A DNA stretch of 64,000 nt from an uncultured Frankiaceae bacterium. GTDB taxonomy: Bacteria; Actinomycetota; Actinomycetes; BP-191. The stretch is taken from NCBI GenBank assembly GCA_964651395.1, contig CAZYXZ010000003.1:52227-116226 (forward strand), read 5' to 3'. Positions within the stretch are counted from its first letter, which is position 1. Each line of letters starts with the position of its first letter. The translations under genes and the position numbers were made by a program. This document shows positions 10,240-41,399 of this stretch, piece by piece. Below the pieces are notes generated by a model. That model saw only the letters and a program-made list of their open reading frames with translations. It was not told where the DNA came from and searched no databases.

Positions 10240-10763
10240 GGTGTGACCTCCAGGGCGCGAGTGAGCGCCTCGATCCCGCGGTGCGCATGGGTCTTGACCG
10301 ACCCGGCGGAGATGCCGAGGGCGGCCGCGATATCGGCTTCGGACAGCTCGGCGTAGTAGCGGAGCACGAGCACCTCGCGCTGCCGGCCGGGGAGCGCGTC
10401 GAGGGCTCGCAACACCTCGCGACGGTCCTCCCGGTCGACGGCGAGGTCCTCCGCACTGGCCGCCGTGACGTCGTGCGCCGGTGCGTGCGCGCGCGCCGTC
10501 CGCACGCGTCGCCAGCCGGAGCGAGCGCCGTTGGCGACGCAGACGCGCAGGTACGCGCGCGCGTTGTCCGGTTCCGCGAGTCGGGTCCAGCGCCGGTAGG
10601 TCCGCGCGAACGCGTCCTGCACCAGGTCCTCGGCGGCGGAGGCGTCGGTGAGCAGGGTGGCGATGCGCAGCAGTCCTGGGTACTCGGCACGGAACAGCTC
10701 GGCAAAGGCGGCGTCGCGGTCGGCTGCGGCCACGCCCACCCCTTTGCTCGCGTACAGCGGCAT
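10236..10763 (-). CDS. ECF (sigma-70 family) RNA polymerase sigma factor
   Basis: Region 2 (AAFAELFRAEYPGLLRIATLLTDASAAEDLVQDAFARTYRRW) and region 4 (ALPGRQREVLVLRYYAELSEADIAAALGISAGSVKTHAHRGIEALT) signatures are present. Start is placed at internal ATG 10763 (MPLYASKG). Confidence 0.8.
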   Translation of the reverse strand: MPLYASKGVGVAAADRDAAFAELFRAEYPGLLRIATLLTDASAAEDLVQDAFARTYRRWTRLAEPDNARAYLRVCVANGARSGWRRVRTARAHAPAHDVTAASAEDLAVDREDRREVLRALDALPGRQREVLVLRYYAELSEADIAAALGISAGSVKTHAHRGIEALTRALEVTP

Positions 10764-10845
10764 CGTCACATCATGGGGACGTCTGACTCGGCCAGGGGTT
10801 GACCGAGGTCCAGGGATTTGATGGGACCACGGCGAACCTACGGAC

Positions 10846-13958: not shown

Positions 13959-16037
13959 TCAAGGACGCGAGCCGAAGGTGTCCGGCCGCAACCTGAGCCG
14001 CCGCAAGAGCTGCGCGTTGAGCGCGACGACGATCGTGGACACGCTCATCAGCACGGCGCCGACAGCGGGCGCCAGGGTGACACCGGCGAAGGCGAGCACG
14101 CCGGCAGCGAGCGGGATCGCGAAGACGTTGTAGCCGGCCGCCCAGACCAGGTTCTGCACCATCTTGCGGTAGCTGGCCTGGGACAGCCGGATCACGCTGA
14201 CCACCGCGCGCGGGTCGCTGCTGGCCAGCACCACGCCGGCGGACTCGATCGCCACGTCGGTCCCCGCCCCGATCGCCAGGCCAACGTCGGCGCGGGCCAG
14301 CGCGGGCGCGTCGTTCACGCCGTCGCCGACCATCGCGACCGTCAGACCCCTCGCTTGCAGCTCCGCGACCTTGGCGTCCTTGTCCGCAGGCAGCACCTCG
14401 CTCATCACCTCGTCGATGCCGAGCTCGACGCCGACCGCGTCAGCAACTTGGCGCGCATCCCCGGTGATCATGACCACCCGCCGGCCGAGCCGGTGCAACT
14501 GCTCGACCGCCGCGCGTGCCTCCGGACGGATCTGGTCCTCCAGGGACAGCGCACCGAGGATGCGCCGGCCTTGGACCAGGTAGAGCACGGCCGCGCCGCG
14601 ACGCTCCCAGCCTTGCGTGGCGGCGACGAGGTCGTCCGGGACAGCGAGCCCGCGTTCCCGCAGCAGCGCGGGACCACCGACGGCGTACCGCCGCCCACCT
14701 ACAGTGGCTTCGACACCGCGGCCAGCGTGTGACTGGAAGTCCGTGCCGGACAGCGCATCGCCGTGCTCCGCTGCCGCGCTGACGATGGCCCGGGCGAGCG
14801 GGTGCTCACTGTCGGCCTCGACCGCGGCCGCGATCCGCAACAGCTCATCCTCTTCCAGTCCTGCACCCGCCACTCCGCTGACGGTGTGCTCGCCCTTGGT
14901 CAGGGTGCCGGTCTTGTCGAACATGACGATGTCGACGGTGCGCATGCGTTCCAGCGCCAGCCGGTCCTTGACGAGGATCCCGGCCTGCGCGGCCACGGCG
15001 CTGGACAACGACACGACCAGCGGGATCGCCAGGCCGAGTGCGTGGGGGCAGGCGATCACCAGCACCGTCACGGACCGGACCACGGCGTCGTTGCTGTTGC
15101 CGACCGCGAGCCAGGCGAGGAAGGTCACGACGCCGGAACCAGCGGCCACGTAGAACAGCAGGGCGGCGAACCGGTCGGCAAGTGCCTGAGCCCGGCTGCG
15201 CGATGTCTGCGCCTCACCTACCAGCCGCTGGATGCCGGCCAGCGCCGTGTCCTCACCCACCGCATCGACGCGCACGCGGACTGCGCTGTCGGTGGCCACC
15301 GTGCCGGCTACGACCTTCTCCGCCACGGTCCGGCGTACCGGTCGGGATTCACCGGTGACCATCGACTCGTCGAACTCCGCCGCCCCTTGCACGATCTCTC
15401 CGTCGGCGGGAACGCGAGCCCCTGGTCGGACCAGGACGAGGTCGCCGACCTGGAGCTCGTCGATCGCGACCGAGGTGGCCAGGCCGTCCGGTCCGAGCCG
15501 CTCGGCGACGTCTGGCAGCAATGCCGCGAGTGCAGACAGTGCACTGCTGGCTTGGCCCAGGGCCTTCATCTCCTGCCAATGACCGAGCAGCATGATGGTG
15601 ATCAATGCGGCGAGCTCCCACCAGAACTCGAGGGCGAATGCGCCGAGGCTGGTGGCCAGCGATGCGGCGAATGCGACGCTGATCGCCATCGAGATGAGCA
15701 GCATCATCCCTGGCTGGCGCGCGCGGATCTCCGCCCAGCCGCCGGCCAGGAACGGCCAGCCCGCCCAGGCGAAGACGATCGTGCCGAGTACCGGGCCGAC
15801 CAGGCTCATCCCGGGGAAGTCGATGGAGTAGCCGAACCAGTCCATGACCATGTGGCTGGTCGCGATGATCGGCAGGCTCAGCATGAGGCTCCAGACGAAC
15901 CTCCGCCGGAACTGCGCCTCGTGGCCTCCATGGCCTCCGCTGCCCGCGTCGTGGTCGCCATGGCCGTGGTGGGCAGAACCCACCGACGCGCCGTCGAGGT
16001 CAGCCGAGAGCATGGGGTGCGGGTGTGTAGTCGTCAT
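13959..16037 (-). CDS. copB: Heavy-metal (copper) translocating P1B-type ATPase, CopB-like (His-rich N-terminus, CPH motif)
   Basis: Contains DKTGTLT, GDGVNDAPAL and TGE motifs. A TM CPH motif (CPHALGLAIPL) replaces the usual CPC, and the N-terminus is His-rich (HHGHGDHDAGSGGHGGHE). ATG 16037 is preceded by a GAGGTG RBS; the upstream ORF extension is R/G-rich junk. Confidence 0.85.
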   Translation of the reverse strand: MTTTHPHPMLSADLDGASVGSAHHGHGDHDAGSGGHGGHEAQFRRRFVWSLMLSLPIIATSHMVMDWFGYSIDFPGMSLVGPVLGTIVFAWAGWPFLAGGWAEIRARQPGMMLLISMAISVAFAASLATSLGAFALEFWWELAALITIMLLGHWQEMKALGQASSALSALAALLPDVAERLGPDGLATSVAIDELQVGDLVLVRPGARVPADGEIVQGAAEFDESMVTGESRPVRRTVAEKVVAGTVATDSAVRVRVDAVGEDTALAGIQRLVGEAQTSRSRAQALADRFAALLFYVAAGSGVVTFLAWLAVGNSNDAVVRSVTVLVIACPHALGLAIPLVVSLSSAVAAQAGILVKDRLALERMRTVDIVMFDKTGTLTKGEHTVSGVAGAGLEEDELLRIAAAVEADSEHPLARAIVSAAAEHGDALSGTDFQSHAGRGVEATVGGRRYAVGGPALLRERGLAVPDDLVAATQGWERRGAAVLYLVQGRRILGALSLEDQIRPEARAAVEQLHRLGRRVVMITGDARQVADAVGVELGIDEVMSEVLPADKDAKVAELQARGLTVAMVGDGVNDAPALARADVGLAIGAGTDVAIESAGVVLASSDPRAVVSVIRLSQASYRKMVQNLVWAAGYNVFAIPLAAGVLAFAGVTLAPAVGAVLMSVSTIVVALNAQLLRRLRLRPDTFGSRP

Positions 16038-16723: not shown

Positions 16724-17185
16724 TCAGTTGGCTTCCTTCCATGCGGCTCGCGCGCTCTGGCATTCCACCCGGACATCGACCTCGAAACGCTGCGTTCCGT
16801 CGTCCGTACGGACCTGGTTGAGATAGAGCCGGACCTGACGACGTCCAGCGCTGTCGCGCCACTCCACCTGCCGCTGACCGGTCGGGGCGCGCTCGGGCAA
16901 CTCCCGGAACTCCGCAACGGGCGCCCCTTCGCCGGCGAACGCGGCTCGGACTGCCTCTTCGACGCTTCGGTGCTCCGGGAACGTGCCGCTGACCCGGTCT
17001 ACCGGCCCTTGGCCGCCCGTACCGACGCCTGCCGGACACTGCAGGTCGTACTGCTTCGTCGGCGTTGGCGCGGGTTGAGAAGCACCCGGGCTGACGGAGC
17101 TCCTCGGATCTTGCTCATCGCTGCACGAGGCCACCCCTGCTGTGATGGTCAGCACGACGGCCCACACCAGCTTCACTCGCGACAT
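16724..17185 (-). CDS. Putative lipoprotein
   Basis: N-terminus MSRVKLVWAVVLTITAGVASCSDEQD is signal-peptide and lipobox-like (VASC). Confidence 0.5.
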   Translation of the reverse strand: MSRVKLVWAVVLTITAGVASCSDEQDPRSSVSPGASQPAPTPTKQYDLQCPAGVGTGGQGPVDRVSGTFPEHRSVEEAVRAAFAGEGAPVAEFRELPERAPTGQRQVEWRDSAGRRQVRLYLNQVRTDDGTQRFEVDVRVECQSARAAWKEAN

Positions 17186-17760: not shown

Positions 17761-17916
17761 GAGCACAACGTACGCGGGCGCCGACCGCGTGGGGCACTGG
17801 ACAAGCCACGAACAGCGGACCAACCGCCCCCCTCCTCGCCAGCCGCCCTGTGTCACGTCCCTTGCAGACGCCAGCCGCCGACGAGGCGCATGATCGCCCT
17901 GCTACAGGGGGTTGCG

Positions 17917-18921
17917 ATGAACGCTCGCGCGCTCGGACTTGCGGTGGCTCTTGCGGTGGTGGCCTGCTCCGGTAGCACGCCTTCGCCTTCCCCTTCCCCG
18001 AGCTCGGTCTCCCCGACGACGGGATCGACTCCTACGCCATCGATTTCTCCATCGGTGGCGCGGACCGCGCAGGTCGAGAGCTCCCGGCCAGCGGAGTACG
18101 TCGCCGTCGACGACACCGACCGGCTCGCTGTCTTCCGCTCCAGCGACGGCTCACGAGTGCGCTACCTGACCGCGCAGCAGCCAGGTGGGGGCGTGAAGCA
18201 CCCGGTAGTACGGGGCGATCTCGTCTACTTCATCCGCGCCCTCGGCACGTGTGCTGCGAGCATCAACATCGCTCGGCTGGATGGCACCGGCGAAGAGCAA
18301 CAGCTCATCGACTTTGACGGCGTCCACATCCCCGACGACCTCACGTTATCAGGCAACGGCGTCAAGATGGGGTACACGAAGACACGTTGCTCCGACGGCC
18401 GGCAGTGGATCGTCACGCGACTCAACGACGGCAATGCGAAGGAGTCCAGCTTCCTCTCCCTGGAACCGGGCACGGAATCTGGTCCCGCATTCTCCCTGGC
18501 ACTCGACGGTGCTGGCGACACGATCTACTACCTGCAGTTCGCCGACAACGAGAACGGTCCGTCACTCCAAGCGCGGGCGCTTGTCGGCGATCCACACGCA
18601 GCCGAAGGCGGTCTCTCGGCGCAGCCCGGGTGCATGCTGCATGCCGCTACGTGGAGCAGGGTGCACGGCCCAGTAGTGGCCTGCGCCACGTCGCGCGGTC
18701 ACCAGGCCAAGAAGGTCTTGCCGGGGGGCGGCACGAATCCGCTGTTCTCGATGGCAGACGGAGCGAGAGCAGGCATCGACCGGCTGTCGTTCGACCTGAG
18801 CGGCAAGCACCTGCTGTTCGCGACTGTCACGGGCGACACCCGCGGATCGACCTACCGCTGGTCCGGCGATGGCAACACCCCTACGCAAGTGGCCCGCAAC
18901 CAGATATCCCCAACTTGGTAG
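17917..18921 (+). CDS. Putative lipoprotein with Pro/Ser-rich linker
   Basis: N-terminus MNARALGLAVALAVVACSGSTPSPSPSPSS has a signal peptide and a lipobox (VVAC), followed by a ~300-aa domain. Confidence 0.55.
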   Translation: MNARALGLAVALAVVACSGSTPSPSPSPSSVSPTTGSTPTPSISPSVARTAQVESSRPAEYVAVDDTDRLAVFRSSDGSRVRYLTAQQPGGGVKHPVVRGDLVYFIRALGTCAASINIARLDGTGEEQQLIDFDGVHIPDDLTLSGNGVKMGYTKTRCSDGRQWIVTRLNDGNAKESSFLSLEPGTESGPAFSLALDGAGDTIYYLQFADNENGPSLQARALVGDPHAAEGGLSAQPGCMLHAATWSRVHGPVVACATSRGHQAKKVLPGGGTNPLFSMADGARAGIDRLSFDLSGKHLLFATVTGDTRGSTYRWSGDGNTPTQVARNQISPTW

Positions 18922-19058
18922 ATCCAGCGTGCGGCTCCCGGATCAGAACACTGGTCCTCGGCAGCTTCTGAGAAGTTGATCTTCCTTCGCGTCGCAGGCG
19001 CCGACCTGGCAGAGTCGCGCCCACGACCCGTCCTCGCCTCATCGCCAAGGACTGCCGG

Positions 19059-19769
19059 ATGGCGACAGCACCTCGCCCACGTATCCTCGTCACTGGTTCC
19101 GCCGGCTACGTCGGGCAGCTCGTTCTGCCCTCGCTCCGCGCGCGCTACCAGCTTCGGTGTCTCGACCTGGAACAACAGCACCCCGTCGACGACGACGAGA
19201 TCGTCACTGCTGACATCAACGATCTCGACCGGATGGTGGCGGCCTGCGACGGCGTCTTCGCGATCGTGCACCTAGCAGCCAAGGCTTTCGAGGACGACTT
19301 CCCTACTGTCCTACAGCCGCGCAACATCACCGGCGCATGGACCATGTTCCAGTCCGCCGTGCAGGCCGGTGTCCGCAAGGTCGTCTTCGCCAGTACTGGT
19401 CAGGCCGTCGGCGGCAATGAGCCCGGCCTTCGCATCGACCCCGACCAGCCAGCGCGACCGATCTCCGAGTACGCCTGCACCAAGATCTTCGGCGAAGCTC
19501 TCGGGCGGTTCCATTCGGACACCCACGGGCTTCAGGTCGCCTGCCTCCGCCTTGGCTGGGTCGTCACCAACGACAGCCCCCTGTTTCTCACAGAACCGAC
19601 ACTGCCCGGCGCCTGGTGCTCCCCGGACGACCTCTCGCGCCTTATCCACGCAGCCATCACGGCCGACGTCCCCTACGCAGTCGTTCTCGCCGTCTCGCCA
19701 CCAGCAACGGAACGGTTCGACACACGCAACCCGTACGGCTGGATTCCGGCTGACCAGATCCAACGCTGA
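19059..19769 (+). CDS. NAD-dependent epimerase/dehydratase family protein
   Basis: Rossmann motif ILVTGSAGYVGQ and catalytic YxxxK (YACTKIF). Confidence 0.75.
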   Translation: MATAPRPRILVTGSAGYVGQLVLPSLRARYQLRCLDLEQQHPVDDDEIVTADINDLDRMVAACDGVFAIVHLAAKAFEDDFPTVLQPRNITGAWTMFQSAVQAGVRKVVFASTGQAVGGNEPGLRIDPDQPARPISEYACTKIFGEALGRFHSDTHGLQVACLRLGWVVTNDSPLFLTEPTLPGAWCSPDDLSRLIHAAITADVPYAVVLAVSPPATERFDTRNPYGWIPADQIQR

Positions 19770-19851
19770 CCTGGCTACTAACCACGTGCTCAGATGTTCT
19801 GCAATTGCGCAGCAGAAACTGCGCCCTACACCACTTCTAGTGCCGACGATG

Positions 19852-19940
19852 CGGCTTCTGTGAGAAGTCCTGAGCGCGAGGAATACGTCCGTGAGAAGTC
19901 CACTGGGTCGTTTCATGAGAAGTTGATCTTGCGCGCCGTA
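19852..19940. repeat. Three direct copies of GTGAGAAG(T) at ~28-30-nt spacing, the last extended as TGAGAAGTTGATCTTGCGCGCC
   Basis: ctgtGAGAAGtcc, ccgtGAGAAGtcc and catGAGAAGttgatctt lie upstream of the 19984 ORF. A further 15-nt identical copy (TGAGAAGTTGATCTT) is at 18969-18983, upstream of the epimerase gene. Confidence 0.45.
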
Positions 19941-19983
19941 CAGCAGCAGAACATGGTGGACGAGCAACCTATGTGCCCCTTCG

Positions 19984-20643
19984 ATGCCCCACAATCATCT
20001 GATGTCGGGCGGCCGCCTCATGAGCATGTGCCTGAGCGCCGGTGTTGTAGTGCTGTTCTGTTCGTGCAGCGCGGATGTGCCGCCGTCCCAGCCCAGGTCC
20101 CAGCAAGCATTGCGCGACGCCCTCCCCGAGGCGGACGACCTAGGTTCCCAATGGGTTGAACTGGATACGGGGCCGGTTCCCACAGCGACGCCCACAGGAC
20201 CCACGTCCTTCTGCAATGAGACGTTCGTGCGGCCAAAAATGGCGGACTACGCCGTGCGCCACTTTGAGGACGAAGACCGCGGTCGCACGGGCGTGGAGCT
20301 CATGCGCTATGCCGACCCGGCGATCGCCCAGGGACGACTCGCCGAGTACGAAAAGCTCGCCGGGTCATGCACCAACTTCACCTTCGAAATGCGGGCGGAA
20401 ACGTTGCCCGCGACGCTGGCGACCACGGAGCCGTACCCGTTGCCTGGCACCGACGTCAGGGCCAGCTGTTACCTGCTTTCGCTCGTGGAAAGAGAATCGA
20501 CCGGCTGGTTCGGTGTCTGTCTCGCTGTGATTGACGACGTCTTCGTGTCTACGAGTTCCCAGAGCTATCAGCGGTCCGCAACAGAAGCGAGTGCGCTATC
20601 CCGCCTGGTGATCCTGAAAGCGATCGAGCGGCTGCAGCGCTGA
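19984..20643 (+). CDS. Secreted or lipoprotein-like hypothetical protein
   Basis: Signal-peptide-like MSMCLSAGVVVLFCSCSA, with an alternative start at ATG 20020. It lies in a lower-GC stretch. Confidence 0.45.
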   Translation: MPHNHLMSGGRLMSMCLSAGVVVLFCSCSADVPPSQPRSQQALRDALPEADDLGSQWVELDTGPVPTATPTGPTSFCNETFVRPKMADYAVRHFEDEDRGRTGVELMRYADPAIAQGRLAEYEKLAGSCTNFTFEMRAETLPATLATTEPYPLPGTDVRASCYLLSLVERESTGWFGVCLAVIDDVFVSTSSQSYQRSATEASALSRLVILKAIERLQR

Positions 20644-20904
20644 CTTCCGCCCGGTGGCACGCTCGAGCACGATCTGCTTCTCACGAAGGTCTGCAATTTC
20701 TCACGCTTCTTAGGCAACAAGCCTATTTCGCAAGAAGCCCGCATCGTCGGCATCTAGTGCCGGCACAGCGCCGCGCAGGCGAATTCCTAAGCGTGAGCCG
20801 GCCGCGCAGGCGATTTTGTTCCGGGTGGTTTCCAGGCGAATTTGATCTCGTACCCGGATCCGCTCTCTCGCAGAGAAGCCAATGACTCTGTTATGTCGGC
20901 GGGA

Positions 20905-21423
20905 TCAGTCGGACGGGCCAAGATCCGCCCTGGTGAGGGCCGCCCGCAGCGCAATGCCCTGGGCGGCCAAATTCTTAACGCCACCTTGCTCGCGATCGAT
21001 CGCACAGACCACGGTGTCTATGAGTGCACCCGCGGCGCGCAGCTCGAGGCAGCCCTTGACCAGTGCGCCACCGGTGGTGACGACGTCCTCCACACCAACG
21101 ACGCGCAGGCCGTCGACTGGCCCGCCTTCGGCCACCTTGCACGTGCCATAGGGCTTCGCTTCCTTGCGAACGAAGACCGCTGGGATCCCGGTCAGCTGCG
21201 ACATCACGGTGACGAGCGGGATGCCCCCCATCTCCATTCCGGCCAAGACGTCGCATGCGGGTACCAAGGCGACCATGTGCTCGGCTACCTGGCGCAGCAA
21301 TGCCGGCTGGCCCTCGAACAGATACTTGTCGAAGTACTCCTTGCTGACCTGGCCCGAACGTAGAGTGAAGGAACCAGTCAGGTGGCAGGCGTCGTAAACG
21401 AGCCGGCCGAGGGGGGTTGCCAT
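20905..21423 (-). CDS. pyrE: Orotate phosphoribosyltransferase
   Basis: 172 aa with a PRTase fold and a PRPP-binding loop (VVGVEDVVTTGGALVKG); it matches actinobacterial PyrE (LRSGQVSKEYFDKYLFEGQPALL). Start is ATG 21423. Confidence 0.7.
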   Translation of the reverse strand: MATPLGRLVYDACHLTGSFTLRSGQVSKEYFDKYLFEGQPALLRQVAEHMVALVPACDVLAGMEMGGIPLVTVMSQLTGIPAVFVRKEAKPYGTCKVAEGGPVDGLRVVGVEDVVTTGGALVKGCLELRAAGALIDTVVCAIDREQGGVKNLAAQGIALRAALTRADLGPSD

Positions 21424-21540: not shown

Positions 21541-22215
21541 TCAACGCCCGCCGTAGTAGCGAATAGCCGACTCACCAAGGGCGCGCGCGAAACTCCGGTC
21601 GACGGTGTATCCGACTGCGGCGCCCGCGATGGGCACTAGCTTCACAAAGGACGTGAGCGACTTCTCGCCCGCTTTGGTCAGGATCTTTCGACTGACCACC
21701 TTGTTGACCCGCTTCATCGTCTCTCGCGTGACGATCTTCTGGACCCACTTCTTACCCATGTCGTTCGCTGCAGCGACTCCAAACGTTCTCAGCGCGCTGA
21801 CAGCGCTGTTGCCGGCCAGGATGAGTACTAGATCTTGCCGGAGATCGGGGCTGTCGAGTTCGTCATAGACGGCGGCGACCGCCAGCACTAGCGACGCTTG
21901 CAGGGTCAGCACCGACGAGATATTCAGCGCCAGAGTCGGGGCACCACCGAAGCCAGTGGCGAAGCTGGCCGCTCCCACCCGGCGGGTGCCACGCTTGACG
22001 ACCAGACGGGCAAGTTGGTCCTGCGAAAGACCAGGATTTCGTTTGCGGGCACGCTCGACGTCGGCGACGACGATCCCGCGGGCGCGAGCGATGGCGCCCA
22101 GTAGCAGATCGTCGAGGCGACCCACATCGTCCGAAGGGTCCAACTCTGGGCTGCTAACCGGGCCGTCGACAGTCATAAGAGCGCCATGGCATCCGTCATA
22201 TCCCGAGTCGATCAC
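21541..22215 (-). CDS. Hypothetical protein (possibly EcsC-family-like)
   Basis: 224-aa ORF with internal hydrophobic segments. The family assignment is only a tentative recollection. Confidence 0.45.
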   Translation of the reverse strand: MIDSGYDGCHGALMTVDGPVSSPELDPSDDVGRLDDLLLGAIARARGIVVADVERARKRNPGLSQDQLARLVVKRGTRRVGAASFATGFGGAPTLALNISSVLTLQASLVLAVAAVYDELDSPDLRQDLVLILAGNSAVSALRTFGVAAANDMGKKWVQKIVTRETMKRVNKVVSRKILTKAGEKSLTSFVKLVPIAGAAVGYTVDRSFARALGESAIRYYGGR

Positions 22216-22432: not shown

Positions 22433-25400
22433 CTAATCCAGGTCGCCGGTAGCCGAGCTAGGGCCTTCCTCGGACTCGGTAAAGGGGACATCGATCGCGC
22501 GCCGAGTGCGAATTCCACCCAAGTGAATCGTCGTGGATGGTCGCCACTCCAACTCGGTGAGTGGTGACTTGAAGATGCGCATCCTCGTCGGCCAGCCGCG
22601 TTCCAGACCCGCGATAACGGCAAGGAAGTACGCATTGCCTTGTCGCGATGCTTGATGTGACTCGGCCGCCGTGAGCGAAACCTCATCGGGCATCTCCCTG
22701 GCATGCGCCTTGATCTCGAAGTATCGAAGAAGCTCATCGACGGCGTCTGCTCCAATACCGTGTTGGTTTCGGAAGTCAGTCAGCTCGGCTATCTCTCTGA
22801 CACGAAGTGTCTCTCTGAGTAGCTCCAGCCCGAACGTTTCGACGTCGTCCTGGGTAAAGGCAGCTGGCGCAGTGCGCGGCGCCGCGCGCGGCTTGGGCGC
22901 GGGCAAGTTGTCCTTTAGTGGCCGCTTGCCACGTCGCTTGTTGGTCGGCTGGCCCTCACCGATCTCTATGGCTGCGACGTCAACTTCTACGCTCGTCTTC
23001 AACTGCCGTGTGGGCGGCGTGTCAGGGTCTTCAGTGTCTGTCGCTGTGGGTGTTGCCGGTCTGGCGACAGGTCGGCGCCCCTTCCGTGGTGCCTGCAGTT
23101 CAGCTGCGAGGTCCGCGAGTGAGTCGTCGCTGTCGCCGGCCACAGCGATCTGAATGTTCTCCGGCGCTTCACCTCGCTCAGCCCGACGCCACGCCTTCTC
23201 CCACAACAGGGCCACCTTTGTGCGATCGACCATGTCCTCGCCGGAACGGCCGAACAACGCAGCGATGGCAAGGCCGCCCGTCTCGGAATCGCGCAGTGCC
23301 TCCACGGTCCGAGCGGCGACGATGGTCGGAGTGCGGGAGACATGAGCCCCGATGGGAACCGCAACGGACCGACTCTCGGGTAGTTGAACTTCGACCGAGA
23401 GGTGGGCGGTCAGAGCGACCTGGGCGCCGATCAGCTCTGCCCATGTGAGGGACAGCCCGGCGTACACATCCGGATCCTCAGCGAGGATCATGTCGTGTAG
23501 ATGACGTACGGCGGCTTCGAAGGTCTGACGGACAGTCACGCCCGCGAGCTGTGCTGCCGGCGTCAGGCCATTGAGAGCGAACTCGGAGCGGTCGAGCGTT
23601 ATCACGCCGGCCCACGATGGAAAGTCGCCAAAGGAATCCAGGCCGCCGGGCGGGATCCACACCTGTGCATGCTCGCCCAGCGCCTCCGCTAGTGCGCGGT
23701 CGTCCACCGCGTAGATCGGTCGTTGCGTCTGCCAACCGCTGACGGTTTGGAGCGGAATCTTTCGCAACTCATCTCGCTGACGGCCCCGCATTTCTGGGTG
23801 CCTGCTCAGGTAGCGATAGACCTGCAGAAGGACTCCGCGCTCGTGTGGCTGTGGCGGGTCTTGTGCAATCTCGTTGAGCACGGCAAAGCAGACGTCCGGC
23901 TTGGGGGTACTGAGTGCCAGGACTTCCCATAGCGGTTCCAACTGGGGCTGCTCTGGGACGAATGGTCGTCTTGATCCAAAGATGGGATCGCCGCGGTAGA
24001 CGGCGGATGGGGGATACCAGCGTCCGTGCCAGTACAGCAGTCCCGGCGACTTGCGACCGATGCCAAATCTTCCGCGCAGCTGGGCAACCGTGAGCTCGCC
24101 AACCAGTGATGAGGACGTGGCGGTACCTAACGCCGGGCAGCGTTGCGCGAGGGCGAGATACAAGCTGACCGCGTCCATCGGATCCACCGTGTCAGCGTCC
24201 GTGTCGCGCAACGCCGTGAGCTCGCGGAGGACGTCCTCGGTGGTCGGAGAGGTCTTCATGCCTAGGGCATGGAGCACTGTTAGATCGCGATCTGCATCGA
24301 CTTCCGCTGCGTACCACTCTGGTTGCTCACCGAAGACACTGAGCATCTCCGGGGTTCGGACGGCGAGCTCTCTTGGAGCCTTGGCCTCACCTGCCATGTT
24401 CGACATCCAGGGGGCACTCGCCAGCCGCGATAACCAGGTCGCCGGCACCGGCCCAACTCGCTTCCAGCGGTAGTCCGAGTACACGGCGTGTGCGAACTCG
24501 TGGTCTGCATAGACGCGCCTCCAGCCGCGGCTGATGGTGGCCAAGAGGCCGCGCGCCCGTTCGCGGCGGGACCTGACAGGGCTTGCGACGATCTCTGCTA
24601 CGACAGCATCCAGGTCGGCTGATACGCGGTCTGCTTGCAGGTGCGTCGGCCGTCGCTTCAGTGCGTCGATCGCCAAGGCCTGCATCGCGCCGTTGGCCTG
24701 CCTGTGGATAGGCGACGCGGGATCATCGCGACGGAAGTCGCGCTGTCTGGGGACCGTCAGCCGAGGTACCACCTCCGCGCCCAGCGAGGAAAGAAAGGCT
24801 CGAGCACCCAAGCCCCCGCCTTCGGTCGGCCTCAGCAAGGCGCTGTACCGGCCGTCTATCCACAACAACCCGGCCGCAGTGCCGGCTGCGGGAGCCCAGC
24901 CAGCACTGCCCCCTTCGATTCGACTTGGCAGGTACGCGGTGGGTGGTGTGACCAAGCGTTCGGATCTGCTTCCGTTCTCGTGGCTGAAACCGGCTAGTAG
25001 TAGGCGTTGCCCGAGGGCAGGCGCGAGCCGGTCTCTGCGTGCGGCTGGCGCTGCCGCGAGAAGGTCCCTGATCTGCGTCAATTGCGAGTCACTCGGGGTG
25101 ATCTTGCTCTCGTGGTCAGCGATGACCTGTAGAGCAAGCTCGGGTGTGATGACGCTGTGCAGCGTGCCCGCATGCTTGAGCCAGGCCGTCACGTCTTCGC
25201 CAGCCGAGGCCCCCAGGAACTCAGGATGCAGCTGCCACGCGAAGCCCAGCTGGTGCAGGAGTTGCCCTGCTGGGCCCCCATCGTGCTGGCTTACGAGCAC
25301 ACCTTGGGAAAGTGTCTGTGGTGGCCGCACGCGGGCACCGCTGGCGAGGACCGCGCAACGATGCGTGGCGACTGTTCTGCCGAGGCCCGCGGCGAGCGCG

Positions 25401-26908
25401 GCCCCGACCAGGTCTGCGTACCACGCTGGTGGTCGCGGGTGGCGCTCATCTTCGAGAAGAGTCAGCGCCAGCGGCAAGTCGACTCGTTTGCTCACGGCCA
25501 GCTCGTCGAGAACCAGTCGCCACCGACCACCAGGATCCCGCACCGCGTTGGCGAGGGGTGTTGCCTCCGGCGCAAGCTCGGCGATGTCTGCTGCTGTGAG
25601 AACTCCGTCCAGCTCGTCAACTTCGTACGCCAATTGCTGAAGGGCGACGCCGTCGGGCATCGGCAGCAGGAGACTCTCGGCGATCTGCCTATGCACACCC
25701 TCGATGTGCTTACGCAGTCGGTCCTGGAGCCACGCGTCTTCCGCCACGAAAGACTCGTCCGCAAGCGGCACGATCTCCCAGGTCAGCGCCGGTGTGGCGC
25801 TGGCTACCTGAACCGCGATCGTCGACACAAGACGAGCGAGCTCATCTATCAGCCAGGCATTCCATGGTTCGTGTTGAAGGCGGGATCGGGCCGTGTCAGG
25901 GTCGAACTGGGCTTGCAACGCGTACGGCATTCGCGTGCGGAGCGCGATTGGCAGTCCAGCATGAATTCGCCCCGGCTCCGCCCGCGAGGGGACGGCAACT
26001 GCGATCGGGACCTCGTCGGCGGTTTCCTTTCCCGCACGACGCAGGGTGGTTGGGTGGCGGACGGTGGTCGAATACCGCGTCCAATAGCGGTCTTCACTCG
26101 GGTCGCGCACTAGGTCGACCTCGATTGACAGATCCCGCCAACGATCTGTGGTGATTGTTTCGAGGACGATGCCTCGCCGGTCGAGTTCGCGCGCTTCCGC
26201 ATCGAACAGGCGGACGGTTGAGACCGCATCCAGGAACAGGAGAAATCCGGCGTCGAAGGTACTGAACCAATCGACGACGGTGGCGGCGCTGACCTCCTCC
26301 CTGAGTGCCAGCACTAGCAACGTGTCGAGCTGCTCAGGGTCGTAGAAGCCGGGAATGCCCGGGACGGCCGGGATGATCCGGGGACCATCGCTTTCCGCTT
26401 CGAAGTGGTACGGGTGGCAATGAACCGCCATCGCGGTGCTGATCCTGCTGAGCGTCTTTAGGCCGATGCCGAACTTGCCCTTGCTGGCCGCCTCTCCTCG
26501 CTTCGTCGATACATACGCCAAGGCCATCGCCGCGGTATCGACGAACCCAATGCGAGCCCCGTCATGGGCGACGAGAAGTTCCGTTCGAGAACCCACGGTG
26601 CGAATGAGGAACCGAACTTCGTGCGCGCCCTCGTCGTCTGCATTTTGCAGAATCTCGACGAGGCCGGTCAGGCCCTCCACGTTCAGCTGTTCGGCACTGA
26701 ACGTTGCCCCTTCTAGGACGTCGCGAAGTAGACCAGGCGTCTCGTCGCGAATCAGCCGGCTCAGCTCTTGGAGGGCGGATTCTGCGAAGCTGGTGGTGAA
26801 GCGGTCCTCTATCGAGTGCTTGCGCCCATGCCGGTACAGCTGATCAGCTGCCTGTGTCCCGGCAGCACTGTCATCCGATGTCGGTCCTTCGCCGCCGTCG
26901 TTGTTCAT
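22433..26908 (-). CDS. Giant 1491-aa protein: N-terminal sacsin/Hsp90-like GHKL ATPase (HATPase_c_3-type) + long middle region + C-terminal DUF3883-like (restriction-endonuclease-like) domain
   Basis: Bergerat motifs are present: VEILQNADDEGA (motif I), HDGARIGF (motif II) and KGKFGIGLKT (motif III). The C-terminal ~150 aa (ELLRYFEIKAHAREMPDEVSLTAAESHQASRQGNAYFLAVIAGLERG) resembles DUF3883. It starts 285 nt downstream of the second tniQ on the same strand. Confidence 0.8.
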   Translation of the reverse strand: MNNDGGEGPTSDDSAAGTQAADQLYRHGRKHSIEDRFTTSFAESALQELSRLIRDETPGLLRDVLEGATFSAEQLNVEGLTGLVEILQNADDEGAHEVRFLIRTVGSRTELLVAHDGARIGFVDTAAMALAYVSTKRGEAASKGKFGIGLKTLSRISTAMAVHCHPYHFEAESDGPRIIPAVPGIPGFYDPEQLDTLLVLALREEVSAATVVDWFSTFDAGFLLFLDAVSTVRLFDAEARELDRRGIVLETITTDRWRDLSIEVDLVRDPSEDRYWTRYSTTVRHPTTLRRAGKETADEVPIAVAVPSRAEPGRIHAGLPIALRTRMPYALQAQFDPDTARSRLQHEPWNAWLIDELARLVSTIAVQVASATPALTWEIVPLADESFVAEDAWLQDRLRKHIEGVHRQIAESLLLPMPDGVALQQLAYEVDELDGVLTAADIAELAPEATPLANAVRDPGGRWRLVLDELAVSKRVDLPLALTLLEDERHPRPPAWYADLVGAALAAGLGRTVATHRCAVLASGARVRPPQTLSQGVLVSQHDGGPAGQLLHQLGFAWQLHPEFLGASAGEDVTAWLKHAGTLHSVITPELALQVIADHESKITPSDSQLTQIRDLLAAAPAARRDRLAPALGQRLLLAGFSHENGSRSERLVTPPTAYLPSRIEGGSAGWAPAAGTAAGLLWIDGRYSALLRPTEGGGLGARAFLSSLGAEVVPRLTVPRQRDFRRDDPASPIHRQANGAMQALAIDALKRRPTHLQADRVSADLDAVVAEIVASPVRSRRERARGLLATISRGWRRVYADHEFAHAVYSDYRWKRVGPVPATWLSRLASAPWMSNMAGEAKAPRELAVRTPEMLSVFGEQPEWYAAEVDADRDLTVLHALGMKTSPTTEDVLRELTALRDTDADTVDPMDAVSLYLALAQRCPALGTATSSSLVGELTVAQLRGRFGIGRKSPGLLYWHGRWYPPSAVYRGDPIFGSRRPFVPEQPQLEPLWEVLALSTPKPDVCFAVLNEIAQDPPQPHERGVLLQVYRYLSRHPEMRGRQRDELRKIPLQTVSGWQTQRPIYAVDDRALAEALGEHAQVWIPPGGLDSFGDFPSWAGVITLDRSEFALNGLTPAAQLAGVTVRQTFEAAVRHLHDMILAEDPDVYAGLSLTWAELIGAQVALTAHLSVEVQLPESRSVAVPIGAHVSRTPTIVAARTVEALRDSETGGLAIAALFGRSGEDMVDRTKVALLWEKAWRRAERGEAPENIQIAVAGDSDDSLADLAAELQAPRKGRRPVARPATPTATDTEDPDTPPTRQLKTSVEVDVAAIEIGEGQPTNKRRGKRPLKDNLPAPKPRAAPRTAPAAFTQDDVETFGLELLRETLRVREIAELTDFRNQHGIGADAVDELLRYFEIKAHAREMPDEVSLTAAESHQASRQGNAYFLAVIAGLERGWPTRMRIFKSPLTELEWRPSTTIHLGGIRTRRAIDVPFTESEEGPSSATGDLD

Positions 26909-27193: not shown

Positions 27194-28678
27194 CTACTGA
27201 CACGTTCCGGACGACATATGTCCCGTCCCTAATCGGCTCGCGCACGGGCACCACCATCCTTCGATGGAGCAGGGGGCAGCGGTTACCCGGTCAAGGCGGT
27301 GGCGCGCCAGTCGGCGAGTAGGCCACGGCCGCGTCCAGCCGCTGCTTGATGCGAGTTCACGTGCCAGCGCCATCGCCTGCTTATCAAGGCGGACCTTGTC
27401 GGCTGCTGGAAGTGCGTTGTGGACGTAGTGGGCCCACCGCTTTCCCTGCTCAGCCGGCAGTCCCAGGCTTCGGGCGGCATCCGCCCACGACGTGGTGTGC
27501 GTGCGGGCTACCGCGAGGCTGATGTACGCACGCAAGACGTCGAGCGTCGGACGGCGCAGAGCGTGAAGGTCTGCCGGGACCGCGCACGACCACGCGAGCT
27601 GTGGCATGTCGGCAAGGAACGCTGAGTGATCGGAGGTGGTGCGGGAGCGATTGAGACGGGACGACGGTCGGCCGGTCCGCCTCAGGACGTGATCCAGGAA
27701 CTCGCGCAGGACTGGTTGCCTGCCGCGGGCAAGCTGCTCAGTCAAGACCTTTCCCGCCGGCACTCTGTTGTGGCTGGCAGCCTCCTCAACGAACGCGCTG
27801 CTTGCGGAGGCAGGATCCGCCGCTTCCGCCCAGCGCCGGGCGCCGGAAACCAGTTCGCGGACACCCGCGAGATCTCTGGGAGGGCTTCGCCAGAAGCGTG
27901 TCGTTGCCGGCTGGGCTGCAAGCCCGTTGCTCAGCCAGTTCTGCAAGGACAGGACTTCGCGTAGAGCGCGCAGGCCTTCGTTCGCTGCTATCTCCACACC
28001 CGCGACACGGATGGGGCTGCCGGCGAGGACGGTGTCCACGAGGTGTTGCCAGGCAGCCTCGTGTGGCTGCATCGGCTCGGTGACGGCGGTCCGCAGATCG
28101 CCGCCACAGGGCCTTGCTCCCCGTCCGCGACCGCGGACTTCGGACATCTCTGGACGGTGGCATCGCGCGGGTTGACGGACCTGCTCCATGAAGACTGGTT
28201 GAGCACTGGTGCCGTTGCCGCCGTGGGGCCACCCGAGGCATGTGGGGCAGCGGTCAGCGAGTGTGCGGCCATGCTCGATGCATCCGACGTTGACGGCGAT
28301 TCGATGTGCGAGTTGCCACGCGCCGTCGTCGGCCAAGTGCTGCGGGCAGAAGAAGGAACCGCCAAGGTGCACCCATTCGCGGCAGGCCCACAGTCCCAAG
28401 TGCTCGCGTGTGAGTGCACTCGGAGGGGTAACGGCGTGCGTGTATGCAGCGAGCGTCATTCCGCGAACTTCTGCCGCGTCCAGATCAAGCGAATCGGCGA
28501 CATCCTCGATCAATTCGTCGGGTAGGTATGCCCCCCAGCCGGCTCGGAAGCCTGCGGGCAGCCCCACCGCATCAAGCACGAACCCGAACGGCGCCTGAAG
28601 CGCGGCGCTGAGCCGTTCGAGGTAGCTGTCGTAGCCCTCGCCGGCGATCAGCAAGGGCATCGTGGGAAGTTGGGTCAT
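27194..28678 (-). CDS. tniQ: TniQ-family protein (second paralog; TnsD/TniQ-like target selector)
   Basis: N-terminus MTQLPTMPLLIAGEGYDSYLERLSAAL and a Cys/His Zn-finger-like region FCPQHLADDGAWQLAHRIAVNVGCIEHGRTLADRCPTCLGW. It overlaps the upstream tniQ by 4 nt. Confidence 0.7.
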   Translation of the reverse strand: MTQLPTMPLLIAGEGYDSYLERLSAALQAPFGFVLDAVGLPAGFRAGWGAYLPDELIEDVADSLDLDAAEVRGMTLAAYTHAVTPPSALTREHLGLWACREWVHLGGSFFCPQHLADDGAWQLAHRIAVNVGCIEHGRTLADRCPTCLGWPHGGNGTSAQPVFMEQVRQPARCHRPEMSEVRGRGRGARPCGGDLRTAVTEPMQPHEAAWQHLVDTVLAGSPIRVAGVEIAANEGLRALREVLSLQNWLSNGLAAQPATTRFWRSPPRDLAGVRELVSGARRWAEAADPASASSAFVEEAASHNRVPAGKVLTEQLARGRQPVLREFLDHVLRRTGRPSSRLNRSRTTSDHSAFLADMPQLAWSCAVPADLHALRRPTLDVLRAYISLAVARTHTTSWADAARSLGLPAEQGKRWAHYVHNALPAADKVRLDKQAMALARELASSSGWTRPWPTRRLARHRLDRVTAAPCSIEGWWCPCASRLGTGHMSSGTCQ

Positions 28679-30057
28679 CCGGTGGCCTCTCGCGTGGCCA
28701 AGGTGCGGGCCGAGGTAGACGGCCACCGCGCGTGTAGGTCCTGAAGGATGCGGAACCACGCATCTGGCCCGGGGCCTTTGAGGGCCTCCATGGCAGCACC
28801 GAGTTCGGCGAGCAGTGTTTCGCCGATCTCGCCTTCAGCATGGCGAAAGCGCTTCGCGTCGAGGGCAGCGGCAACTGCGGCCAGCCAACAGCGCGCAGAC
28901 GCCGGGCCGTCTGGAATCGTCTCTTCGACGAAGTCTCGGAGCGCGGGTTCATACAGGCCGATCGCGTCCTCGTCGCTCAGCACGTGGGGTGGTTGCCGGC
29001 AAGGGACGTTCGACCAGAGGCCAAACAGTGTGCGTTGCGACTTTGGCGCGCGGAGGTGTGCCCCCTGTGGCCGGATGCTGTTCAGGTGCTCTCGGGCTTC
29101 GGCCAAGTCCGCGAGCATCGCCTGGGATGTGTACTTGCTCACGCCACGATGAGTGACGAGCTGGCTTGCGACTCTGCCGAGCAGCGTCTTCCACGAGTCG
29201 TCTCGCCGGGCGATGGAGACTGCCGCTGGCAGAAGCACGCCGGTCGTTGCGCGGCCGAGCATCTCGTGCCTACCCAGGCTTTCCCGAGGCCAACGATCGG
29301 TGCGAGAGGCCACGACGCCGTCGATGCCGAAAATGATGAGGAGCTGAGCCCAGTCAGCGACCGCGGCCAGTTGGCCGGGGGCCATGTCCGGCTCGTCGAT
29401 GAGCCGCTGCAGCCATGTACTGGATGCCAGCAGCCCCGGCACGTCCGTGGCATCGAGCGGCGTCGCGTCAGCCAACGAGGACTGACAGTGCTGGCACGAT
29501 GGGGGGTCGGAGCGTGCGCTGAGTTCGAGGGGGGCATGGCAGCCCGCTTGCCCGCAGCTCGAGCAGTCATCGAGGAGCAGGACGCCGTGCTTGACGCAGA
29601 CCGGCTGGAGTGGGACGAGCCACGTGAATCGGTCAACCGTGGGGCGCTCGGCCAGGCACAGTGGGCAGTACCCGGAGGTGTGACCGGGCATCCATTTGCC
29701 TGGGCGAGGGTCGCGGGGGTGCAGGCCCCACCGTGAGGCACCAAGGCTTGCGACGTCATGCGAGATGGGGGTGAGGCTCGAGAACCGGAGGCCGGTCATC
29801 GCCGCCAGCTGCTCCGCGCTACGGTCGAGTGCCGTGGCGAGCTGCTGTAGGTCGCCATCGGAAGGCAGCATCAATCGGCAGGACCAGCGCTTGGTGAATT
29901 TCACGTCGTGGCGGTGACCGGGATCGAATCCAACGGCTCGAAGGAAGGTGTGTAGAGGCAGATCGTTGGCGCGTGCCAGTCGCCGTACCAAGCTCTGCAA
30001 TGACTCGTCGGCGGCAGGCTCAACGTCGGACGGCAGCCCCGCGGCATCATCAGTCAC
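28675..30057 (-). CDS. tniQ: TniQ-family protein (first paralog)
   Basis: Classic TniQ N-terminus ESLQSLVRRLARANDLPLHTFL and a Cys cluster YCPLCLAERPTVDRFTWLVPLQPVCVKHGVLLLDDCSSCG. It overlaps tnsC by 4 nt (ATGA). Confidence 0.8.
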   Translation of the reverse strand: MTDDAAGLPSDVEPAADESLQSLVRRLARANDLPLHTFLRAVGFDPGHRHDVKFTKRWSCRLMLPSDGDLQQLATALDRSAEQLAAMTGLRFSSLTPISHDVASLGASRWGLHPRDPRPGKWMPGHTSGYCPLCLAERPTVDRFTWLVPLQPVCVKHGVLLLDDCSSCGQAGCHAPLELSARSDPPSCQHCQSSLADATPLDATDVPGLLASSTWLQRLIDEPDMAPGQLAAVADWAQLLIIFGIDGVVASRTDRWPRESLGRHEMLGRATTGVLLPAAVSIARRDDSWKTLLGRVASQLVTHRGVSKYTSQAMLADLAEAREHLNSIRPQGAHLRAPKSQRTLFGLWSNVPCRQPPHVLSDEDAIGLYEPALRDFVEETIPDGPASARCWLAAVAAALDAKRFRHAEGEIGETLLAELGAAMEALKGPGPDAWFRILQDLHARWPSTSARTLATREATG

Positions 30058-31088
30058 GCGGACAGACGCTTCCGCGAAAGGGATGCCGACTCGAGCTCGG
30101 CGAACCCAACGCGCTCTGTCTGCCCGACTGCTCGATAGGCGGTGCGCGCCACCAGGTCAAGCGCGGCACCGATTTTGCCGAGGCTCTGGTTGAACAGGAG
30201 CGTGAGGGCGGGGCTCTCTAGGAGGTCACTGCCGGCCTGGTTGCTCAGCCGCAGCATCACTGCCTGGCTGTGGATCGCGTCGCGGAGCATCAGTCGCGCG
30301 TCGACGTCGTCAGCGTCGACGGCCGGGAACTCAAAGGTTTCCTTGCGCTCGTGCAGTTGGGCCAGCAGGTCGCGGAGCTCACCTTCCGGCACCAGCATCG
30401 GGTTGCACAGCGGCGACTGGTCGAAGTCAAGTGCGGTGAAGAGAACGATCGCGGGCACGAGGTCGACGACGCGCTTGAGGAAGTTCACCATGTCGGCGAA
30501 CTTCGACGACGCGAAGTTCACCATCCCGGCCCTGCGCGCCGACGCGTTGTGAACGTCGTCAATGATTACCAGGCGAACACCGTAGGTGTGGCATTCCTCG
30601 GCGAACTGGTCAAGCATCTCGTTCGCCGTCATCCCCAATCTCCTCGGCGGGATCCCGAGGCTGGCCAGCAGGACGCGCGCGAGGTCCTTGATTTCACTAG
30701 TGGGCGCCTTCACGCATACCACCGGGATGATCTTGTGGCGGCGATCGCCGTCCAAGTAGTCCCGTCCAGTGCGCCAGTCCCGTTCGCACAGTTCCAACCC
30801 GAGGCGAATCGCGAAGGCAGTCTTGCCCGATCGTGCCGGTCCGCCGACACAGAACAACTTGGAGTCCGTTCGAGGTTCCTGGAGGACTTGCCAGGCGTAG
30901 TCGAAGGCGGCGGTCCAACGCGGATACTTCACGTGCCCGAGCCCAATGTTGTAGCGCCGGCGGTTGTCGTCGTCGAGGTCCATTGGCGCGTCACGGTGCC
31001 GAACGTGCCAGTCGTAGTAGCGCTCCAGCATCGGGAGACGGGTCGGCAGTTCCGCGGGGCGCTCGGGGACCCACAACGTCGCTTTCAC
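30054..31088 (-). CDS. tnsC: TnsC/TniB-family AAA+ ATPase (transposition regulator)
   Basis: Walker A FCVGGPARSGKT and Walker B LVIIDDVHN. It sits between the Mu-type transposase and tniQ. Confidence 0.85.
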   Translation of the reverse strand: MKATLWVPERPAELPTRLPMLERYYDWHVRHRDAPMDLDDDNRRRYNIGLGHVKYPRWTAAFDYAWQVLQEPRTDSKLFCVGGPARSGKTAFAIRLGLELCERDWRTGRDYLDGDRRHKIIPVVCVKAPTSEIKDLARVLLASLGIPPRRLGMTANEMLDQFAEECHTYGVRLVIIDDVHNASARRAGMVNFASSKFADMVNFLKRVVDLVPAIVLFTALDFDQSPLCNPMLVPEGELRDLLAQLHERKETFEFPAVDADDVDARLMLRDAIHSQAVMLRLSNQAGSDLLESPALTLLFNQSLGKIGAALDLVARTAYRAVGQTERVGFAELESASLSRKRLSA

Positions 31089-35150: not shown

Positions 35151-35322
35151 CCGCAGAAGGCGGCCGCGCAGTCGTGAGAGCCGGTTCGGTAAGTCCAGGT
35201 GCGGAGGCGACTGCTGAGACCAGGCTCGCGCGGGCTGTCCGAGCGGCACCAGTACGGGCCACTCGTCCTTTCCGCAGAGCGGGCAGACTCCACTAGTACC
35301 CGCGACGACCAGGGGCCGCTCG

Positions 35323-41278: not shown

Positions 41279-41399
41279 GGCGCAAACTGTCGTTGTCGAG
41301 CATCTGCTCGCCGCTACCTTCGCGCACTCGGCACCTGACGCCGCCCGTGGAGGACGATACGTGGCGCGATCTGCGATGAGAGGCATTGAGGATCTGCTC

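Follow-up and report, generated by a model that had tools for sequence, protein, structure and literature searches.

The ends of Tn7-like transposons consist of subterminal arrays of inverted repeats of about 20 bp, three on the left and four on the right in the case of Tn7 (PMC8649781). Insertion beside an existing Tn7-like element creates multiple left and right ends, and restriction-modification (R-M) systems as well as cyclic oligonucleotide-based antiphage signalling systems (CBASS) are typical cargo (PMC8649781). Elements with two tniQ/tnsD genes are common (PMC10293859), and target immunity has been described for Tn7 and Tn6022 (PMC11014353). From the clade dominated by Actinobacteria no member has been characterised experimentally (Benler et al., PMC8649781). 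Here we analyzed a stretch of 64,000 nucleotides (nt) from an uncultured Frankiaceae bacterium (contig CAZYXZ010000003.1, positions 52,227 to 116,226), referred to as the window. A preliminary description had listed a family of short repeated motifs in this window, clustered around an epimerase gene and a lipoprotein-like gene. We are highly confident that these repeats are predicted transposase-binding sites at the ends of Tn7-like transposons stacked in tandem at the stop codon of dnaB. The stack would consist of a 27.8-kb defence element (here named E2), a 912-bp single-gene mini-element (E1) and, probably, an older relic (E0).

The pentamer TCTAG directly abuts all four termini of E1 and E2 (19836, 20753 and 48574), which had been overlooked in the preliminary description. 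These copies are the 5-bp target duplication typical of Tn7-like elements. Both elements start with TG and end with CA. E1 is bounded by a perfect 14-bp terminal inverted repeat, TGCCGACGATGCGG (19841-19854 and 20739-20752), which had escaped notice as well. It is the only inverted repeat of at least 14 nt in the window that is flanked by identical 5-bp direct repeats. Within the terminal 30 nt the two ends of E1 were identical at 21 positions, a value reached at only 2 of 127,940 window positions. The left end of E2 and its reverse-complemented right end likewise shared 21 of the terminal 30 nt in an ungapped comparison. Here the right end was the sole other position of the 127,940 to match the left terminus this well, and this best inverted match coincided exactly with the sequence next to TCTAG at the stop codon of dnaB. 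The left junction of E1 reads TCTAG followed by TGCCGACGATGCGG-CTTCT-GTGAGAAGTCC... and the right junction, in reverse complement, CTAGA followed by TGCCGACGATGCGGGCTTCT-TGCGAAATAG.... The respective junctions of E2 are TCTAG followed by TGCCGGCACAGCGCCGCGC-AGGCGAATTCC... and, again in reverse complement, CTAGA followed by TGCTGACACAGCACCCTAG-GGGCAAATTCC....

Inside the termini lie sites of approximately 11-22 bp. At the end far from dnaB they are direct, on the + strand; at the end adjoining dnaB they are inverted (- strand). All four ends follow one register with a terminus TGC(C/T)G and a first site at offset 20. In the left ends of both elements further sites were found at ~51 and 75-77 (offsets 20, 51 and 75 in E1; 20, 51 and 77 in E2), followed by a GATCT box. 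E1 carries three sites at each end. E2 is asymmetric; its left end contains three spaced sites, and six or seven are packed into the right end, which adjoins the target gene. This agrees with the end architecture of Tn7-like elements summarised in PMC8649781. The left array of E2 is composed of GGCGAATT-type sites (20777-20844) and runs parallel to that of E1; it had not been recognised before. The sites of its right end (48544-54, 48524-34, 48515-25, 48494-504, 48481-91 and 48469-79) form the densest same-strand cluster of the window, with 7 matches in 120 nt. Local alignment of the left ends of E1 and E2 resulted in z = 4.2 (1 of 500 shuffles as good). When E1 was compared with E2 in the pre-set register, 17 of 30 positions were identical (p ~5e-4). 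Within the window the site clusters were strand-specific and confined to the element edges, with the exception of a 3-match cluster in a coding region (15561-15711) that we took as chance. The arrays of E1 and E2 are most likely arrays of TnsB-binding sites. The sites themselves differ in sequence between E1 (GTGAGAAGT-type) and E2 (GGCGAATT-type).

Both elements were inserted in the same orientation and at an identical pentamer, which lies 16 nt beyond the conserved GACATG of dnaB. The corresponding motif at the 3' end of dnaB (..TTCGTCGACATG.., 16 nt from the insertion point) was conserved across the 80 other actinobacterial dnaB loci of our comparison set (L002-L081), and the conserved 3' coding end of the gene is presumed to be the attachment site. 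In addition, dnaB marks the end of an island of foreign composition and lower GC content, which extends from ~18 kb to 48.6 kb with 61-67% GC in 1-kb windows compared with ~70% in the flanks. The GC content at third codon positions (GC3) of the open reading frames (ORFs) in the island was 0.71-0.81 versus 0.93 for dnaB. The features of the locus are compiled in Table 1.

Table 1. Predicted elements, end sites, genes and target duplications of the island (positions within the window; E, expectation value)
Feature	Position	Strand	Description
E0 innermost left-end site	18968-18983	+	CTGAGAAGTTGATCTT; first 15-mer copy; E0 is a probable relic
E0 passenger ORF	19059-19769	+	236 aa, NAD-dependent epimerase/dehydratase family; Pfam PF01370, E 7.7e-21
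E0 right-end remnant (probable)	19796-19830	-	TGTAGGGCGCAGTTTCTGCTGCGCAATTGCAGAAC on - strand; contains near-palindrome
TCTAG, target-site duplication copy 1	19836-19840		left flank of E1; read directly; pairs with 20753-20757
E1, predicted non-autonomous mini Tn7-like element	19841-20752	+	912 bp; perfect 14-bp terminal inverted repeat
E1 left-end site array	19860-19930	+	GTGAGAAGTCC 19860, GTGAGAAGTCC 19891, ATGAGAAGTTG(ATCTT) 19915; last is second 15-mer copy
E1 passenger ORF	19984-20643	+	219 aa; lipoprotein-like signal ..VVVLFCSCS..
E1 right-end site array	20674-20733	-	TTGCGAAATAG 20723-33, GTGAGAAATTG 20694-704, GTGAGAAGCAG 20674-84
TCTAG, target-site duplication copy 2	20753-20757		right flank of E1, left flank of E2
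E2, predicted autonomous Tn7-like transposon	20758-48573	- (tns genes)	27,816 bp; termini TGCCGGCACAGC... / ...GCTGTGTCAGCA
E2 left-end site array	20777-20850	+	AGGCGAATTCC 20777, AGGCGATTTTG 20808, AGGCGAATTTG(ATCTC) 20834
TniQ/TnsD-family target selectors, two	27194-28759 and 28675-30057	-	Pfam TniQ PF06527, E 3.2e-13 and 3.7e-19
TnsC/TniB-type AAA+ regulator	30054-31088	-	Pfam AAA_22 (PF13401) and TniB (PF05621)
TnsB, DDE transposase	31085-33091	-	profile versus solved TnsB structures; DD(35)E
TnsA-like endonuclease subunit	33088-34149	-	NCBIfam NF033179 TnsA_like_Actin, E 5.5e-14, profile positions 39-205 of 212
E2 cargo between tnsA and right end	35323-48355		type I R-M, Ser/Thr kinase, type II CBASS
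Type I R-M hsdM/S/R	35323-41278		E2 cargo
Ser/Thr kinase	41678-42967		E2 cargo
CBASS	TIR-SAVED 43913-45085; E1/JAB 45076-47562; cyclase 47132-48355		E2 cargo
E2 right-end site array	48469-48554	-	six to seven packed GGCGAATT-type sites
TCTAG, target-site duplication copy 3	48574-48578		overlaps dnaB stop codon (CTA on + strand, 48575-48577)
dnaB, replicative DNA helicase	48575-50422	-	Pfam DnaB and DnaB_C; TIGR00665

The locus shares with Tn7 of E. coli, which uses attTn7 downstream of glmS, a presumably heteromeric transposase (here TnsB with a TnsA-like protein), the TnsC ATPase and a selector of the TniQ/TnsD family. Common to both are also the multiple TnsB-type sites (left spaced, right packed), the 5-bp target duplication and the orientation-specific insertion with the right end adjoining the 3' end of an essential conserved gene. 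In contrast to Tn7, the target is dnaB, with a duplication that overlaps the stop codon, and the termini are TGC..GCA and not TGT..ACA. E2 furthermore contains two TniQ-family genes but no tnsE, carries ~14 kb of cargo between right end and tnsA, and encodes a TnsB that matches the Tn7 protein at the profile level only (E 1e-22). Similarity was also found to the Actinobacteria-dominated clade 2 (Benler et al. 2021, PMC8649781) with respect to the actinobacterial host, the protein of 'TnsA_like_Actin' type, the defence cargo (R-M, CBASS) and the ends formed by inverted-repeat arrays. E2 may be a member of this clade; the nearest relative of its TnsB among 1.84 billion representatives was, however, only 39% identical.

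Islands of adjacent or nested Tn7-like insertions (PMC8649781; Tn6022 configurations, PMC11014353) resemble the present one in their serial left and right ends at one attachment site and in the reuse of the insertion point. They differ in that two of the three units stacked here are single-gene elements of ~0.9 kb which lack transposition genes, and in that the units carry different site sequences; the latter would fit an escape from target immunity. Taken together, stacked insertions of Tn7-like systems at a single attachment site are known as a type of arrangement. New are the target, as the papers and supplements searched do not connect dnaB with Tn7-like elements, the natural mini-elements with one gene and ~0.9 kb, the TnsB lineage, which is divergent, and the TGC termini. 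The motif family can be resolved into exact transposon boundaries, and the R-M system, the CBASS, the kinase and the neighbouring small genes are accordingly read as mobile cargo and not as a regulon.

The proposed mechanism follows established Tn7 biology. A protein of the TniQ/TnsD type would bind the conserved last ~40 bp of dnaB and recruit TnsC, through which the target signal would reach TnsA and TnsB. The two ends would be paired by TnsB on the site arrays. TnsA and TnsB would then excise the element and join it at a fixed distance and in one orientation, with the right end adjoining dnaB, resulting in the 5-bp duplication. Each new element would insert between dnaB and the preceding element. 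Since newcomers would land at this position, the order of arrival should be E0, E1 and E2. E1 has intact paired ends and a duplication, and its single ORF of 219 aa leaves no transposition gene inside, so it must have been moved in trans. Because its sites differ from those of E2, the partner was probably a different, related element. The difference suggests that the cognate TnsB of E1 is not that of E2, and it may explain why E1 did not block E2 via target immunity.

With its defined ends and its apparently intact set of TnsA-like, TnsB, TnsC and TniQ proteins, E2 is a natural system of compact size, and E1 is a natural mini-element of 912 bp. In high-GC Gram-positive bacteria, the pair could be used to study the specificity of the ends, mobilisation in trans and target immunity, and it may serve there as the basis of a tool for site-specific integration.

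The region around the epimerase gene is probably an older relic that keeps inner sites only, including the first copy of the 15-mer discussed below. Together with its flank, the left site of E0 matches the innermost site of E1, G[C/T]TTC[A]TGAGAAGTTGATCTT. On the right side, TGTAGGGCGCAGTTTCTGCTGCGCAATTGCAGA (- strand, 19796-19830) is similar to inner sequences at the right ends of both E2 and E1. The remnant was identical to the inner part of the E2 right end at 26 of 33 positions (z = 4.6; 2 of 500 shuffles as good), and z = 3.3 was obtained with the right end of E1. It begins with TGTAGG, which is also the terminus-like motif at 11 other dnaB loci. The GC3 of the epimerase ORF was 0.78 as compared with 0.93 for dnaB. 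We file E0 as a probable relic and not as a demonstrated element because an outer left end and a duplication could not be recognised. Two candidates for the outer left end picked by eye, 18916 (TGGTAG, flanks CAACT/CCACT) and ~18890, were unsupported by alignment.

The island probably extends further to the left than E0. When the genes of the left flank were searched for the left border of the island, no synteny with other dnaB loci was found. An ORF of 343 aa (17890-18921) ends with its stop codon just left of the E0 site. It is lipoprotein-like (signal ..LAVVACSGS) with a GC3 of 0.78 and without family match.

Most of the individual observations in the preliminary description proved to be correct. 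The identical 15-mer TGAGAAGTTGATCTT reported at 18969 and 19916 is present in exactly two copies (18969-18983 and 19916-19930), with no third copy at up to 2 mismatches. The chance expectation was 0.02, and none of 100 shuffles contained two copies. Among ~20 distinct exact direct 15-mer repeat pairs in the window it was the sole AT-rich one (33% GC versus at least 60% for every other pair). The first copy lies 90 nt upstream of the + strand ORF that starts at 19059, and the second 68 nt upstream of the one that starts at 19984, as had been described in similar terms. The 15-mer is the innermost left-end site plus the conserved GATCT box, and only the compactness of the mini-elements places it 70-90 nt upstream of an ORF. 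Of the two copies, the one at 19916 is part of E1 and the one at 18969 of E0, the region of the epimerase gene. Including the flanks, three versions exist: GCTTC-TGAGAAGTTGATCTT in E0, GTTTCATGAGAAGTTGATCTT in E1 and GTTTCCAGGCGAATTTGATCTC in E2.

The two further copies said to precede the second 15-mer at ~30-nt spacing were found as GTGAGAAGTCC at 19860 and 19891 (31-nt spacing), with ATGAGAAGTTG at 19915 as third site. Likewise, the related copies indicated near 20688-20727 and 48432-48490 correspond to the arrays at 20674-20733 and 48469-48554, where the motif occurs on the opposite strand. The motif TCTGCAATT is common to 19798, 20690 and 48469 and flanks a right-end site in all three units (E0, E1 and E2). 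A near-palindrome assigned to position 19795 does exist (TTCTGCAATTGCGCAGCAGAA) but starts at 19797 and folds no better than shuffled sequences (z = -0.65); it is part of the E0 right-end remnant. A hairpin or terminator reading of this near-palindrome and of the first 15-mer was discarded, given the same fold value and two terminator-like sites versus 1.2 expected. The reservation that the motifs might be no commoner than expected applied to the 8-mer GTGAGAAG alone (4 copies versus 1.73 expected; 10 of 100 shuffles reached 4) but not to the 15-mer. A repeat search listed ATGAGTACTAGATCTTGC (21821-21838, 83% identity) as a fourth member of the 15-mer family; it is located inside an ORF of the EcsC family and probably a chance match.

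Of the alternatives, given here in order of decreasing probability, the first was among those offered by the preliminary description: the motifs could be operators or promoter elements of one transcription factor or extracytoplasmic function (ECF) sigma factor co-regulating the epimerase and lipoprotein genes. This would agree with the location of both 15-mer copies 68-90 nt upstream of + strand ORFs. A small TTC-N(3-5)-GAA dyad, a frequent feature of operators, is present in many of the sites. In Tn7, moreover, TnsB binding at the right end represses tnsAB, and TnsB-type sites can double as repressor sites. However, the same site family recurs in inverted form downstream of each gene (+ strand left, - strand right), and the arrays keep constant distances from TG..CA termini that are flanked by TCTAG. 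In the 64 kb of the window the motif was found at element edges only and on both sides of the genes, and no sigma-70-like promoter was predicted in 18800-21000. We consider co-regulation very unlikely and did not retain this part of the description, although the sites may have a secondary role as promoter or repressor sites. The other option it had named, attachment or terminal repeats of mobile DNA or fragments resembling miniature inverted-repeat transposable elements (MITEs), was borne out by arrays at TCTAG-bounded TG..CA termini and by a non-autonomous mini-element of 912 bp.

Non-autonomous elements with transposon ends include MITEs and mobile insertion cassettes, the latter with passenger genes. 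E1 resembles them in being short, with perfect terminal inverted repeats, a target duplication, one passenger ORF and no transposase. One might accordingly regard E1 (and E0) as derivatives of this kind from an ordinary insertion sequence (IS) family, unrelated to the Tn7-like element and adjacent to it by chance. The length of 912 bp, the perfect 14-bp inverted repeat, the 5-bp duplication and the missing transposase fit IS-derived cassettes in general, and E1-type and E2-type sites do not detect each other. Nevertheless, E1 shares with E2 the exact insertion point, the 5-bp duplication at the dnaB stop codon and the orientation, and also the terminal TGCCG, the site offsets and the GATCT box (17/30, p ~5e-4). 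Its ends are multi-site arrays of Tn7 type with several subterminal sites in place of a simple, single IS inverted repeat, and it occupies a specific attachment site. We regard a chance neighbourhood with an IS derivative as very improbable.

A third alternative would interpret the repeats as sites of a site-specific recombinase, either the left and right attachment sites (attL/attR) on both sides of an integrated island or inverted repeats that enclose an invertible segment with the lipoprotein gene. The direct repeat TCTAG does occur three times at the junctions and E1 is bounded by inverted repeats. However, 5 bp is too short for the core of an attachment site, and no integrase or invertase domain was detected among the island ORFs scanned, which did not include every small ORF. 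Rfam and tRNA scans yielded nothing, no tRNA or tmRNA target is present in the window, and an apparently complete heteromeric transposase set of Tn7 type is found instead. This alternative appears extremely improbable. Finally, chance similarity in AT-richer intergenic spacers, which would be in line with the missing enrichment of the 8-mer GTGAGAAG alone and with weak BLAST matches (comparison of the three spacers with the window gave individual matches of E > 0.01, uninformative alone), is already refuted by the 15-mer statistics at up to 2 mismatches (0.02 expected; two copies in 0 of 100 shuffles), by an inverted repeat with duplication that is unique in the window and by the E2 termini, which are each other's unique inverted match.

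Several results weigh against the interpretation as stacked Tn7-like elements. The termini of E1 and E2 are TGC..GCA and retain only the dinucleotides TG..CA of the canonical TGT..ACA. A site matrix trained on E1 failed to recover the ends of E2, and a matrix trained on E2 recovered the left end of E1 at background level only. Owing to this weak cross-detection, the case for homology between the E1 and E2 families is based on the termini, on the register and on the insertion point that both use. A single position matrix built from all sites was rejected as circular, as leaving out one element at a time gave no cross-detection above background, and no shared consensus is claimed. For E0, the segment 18870-18967 was without significant similarity to the left ends of E1 and E2, so that its outer left end was not recognised, and a matching target duplication was not found. 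No sister genome was found in which the site is empty or only some of the elements are present, and the sole other contig with the locus was identical. The ends of E1 were not found in metagenomes either: all 104 matches to the pattern of terminus and first site were chance matches, with no more than 26 of 70 nt identical beyond the pattern. The position of ~14 kb of cargo between the right end of E2 and tnsA, and not beyond tniQ, is unusual for a Tn7-like element, and E2 may represent a fused tandem pair.

Approximately 0.5 kb upstream of tnsA (34657-34720) two weak inverted TnsB-like sites, GGCACAATTCC (-) and GCCGAATTTCG (+), are separated by 38 nt. Possible explanations are an autoregulatory site or internal ends, now decayed, of two elements fused in tandem. 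In a search for a right end adjoining tnsA (34150-35330) this back-to-back pair, picked by eye, was not significant by alignment or matrix.

The proteins encoded by E2 were examined individually. Both TniQ proteins scored above the gathering score, and TniQ1 contains CxxC pairs. TnsC carries the Walker A motif GPARSGKT and the Walker B motif LVIIDD. A profile of TnsB and its relatives matched the TnsB chains of PseCAST, ShCAST, Tn7 and Tn6677 in the PDB (E 1.2e-28 to 5e-15), and the residues D295, D392 and E428 were invariant with DD(35)E spacing. This TnsB lineage is rare, since a HMMER search returned 437 matches at E < 1e-3 among the 1.84 billion representatives, with 39% identity of the nearest. 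A word-indexed protein search gave self matches only, and in plasmids no near relative was found (matches of at most 28% identity). The TnsA-like protein reached 52 bits with NF033179, below the curated cut-off of 110, and had no Pfam TnsA match; its position upstream of tnsB is as expected. Weak BLASTP matches linked it to ORFs upstream of tnsB in L017 and L021, two of the dnaB loci described below. From these matches the TnsA-like/TnsB/TnsC/TniQ/TniQ set is apparently intact. Additionally, E2 encodes a cargo protein of 1491 aa (22433-26908) whose N-terminal domain is a P-loop/ATP-binding domain of sacsin type (NF047352, E 5e-15) and which matches NOV_C weakly. The 219-aa ORF of E1 belongs to no Pfam or NCBIfam family and had only its self match among 5.8 billion proteins in a word-indexed search.

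In 3 of the 80 loci, namely those of Paraoerskovia (L017), Actinocrinis (L021) and Frankiaceae (L024), a homologue of tnsB follows downstream of dnaB within 10 kb and in the same orientation. In all three a putative TGT terminus is situated 14-22 nt after the same GACATG motif. The hexamer TGTAGG was found up to 45 nt after the dnaB stop codon in 11 of the 80 loci, compared with an expectation of 0.25 derived from control windows. The 3' end of dnaB looks like a general landing site for TGT-terminated elements, and its stop codon like a recurrent one for Tn7-like elements across Actinobacteria. A link of Tn7-like elements to dnaB was not found in the papers and supplements searched, nor was dnaB found mentioned in the accessible parts of the text and supplement of PMC8649781. 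It is conceivable, as a tentative generalisation, that the dnaB 3' end is a widely used and not yet described attachment site for Tn7-like transposons in Actinobacteria. Defence-carrying elements and single-gene mini-Tn7 elements with differing end specificities would pile up there, the differing sites evading target immunity.

The hosts with TGTAGG at dnaB include Streptomyces, Nocardia, Mycobacterium, Kribbella, Blastococcus, Pseudonocardia, Dietzia and Frankiaceae. At one locus (L067) a weak TnsA-like ORF directly follows TGTAGG. The locus of the Actinocrinis sp. metagenome-assembled genome (L021, 10729-17160) has the same layout as the one studied here, with dnaB, a TGTAGG terminus, a MerR gene, a CBASS cyclase and tnsA-tnsB-tnsC. 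It contains ATGGCGG-type repeats adjoining dnaB (10750-10800) and just upstream of tnsA (16980-17060) and probably holds a tandem pair of elements, which would be a parallel to the possible fused pair in E2. Repeated 9-mers after dnaB were discarded as a test for end arrays, as they occurred in 16 of 78 loci and in 177 of 765 control windows, which is no better. In the species-level genome collection the nearest dnaB was only 83% identical, so that no close empty site was available for comparison.

Across the whole window TGTAGG was present in 21 copies versus 8.8 expected, a number reached by no shuffle. Most copies are inside genes, and the excess may be an effect of codon usage or composition. 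In the DnaB protein, residues ~235-387 form an insert located where mycobacterial DnaB has an intein, and a weak match to an intein-containing protein model was obtained (E 1.9e-4).

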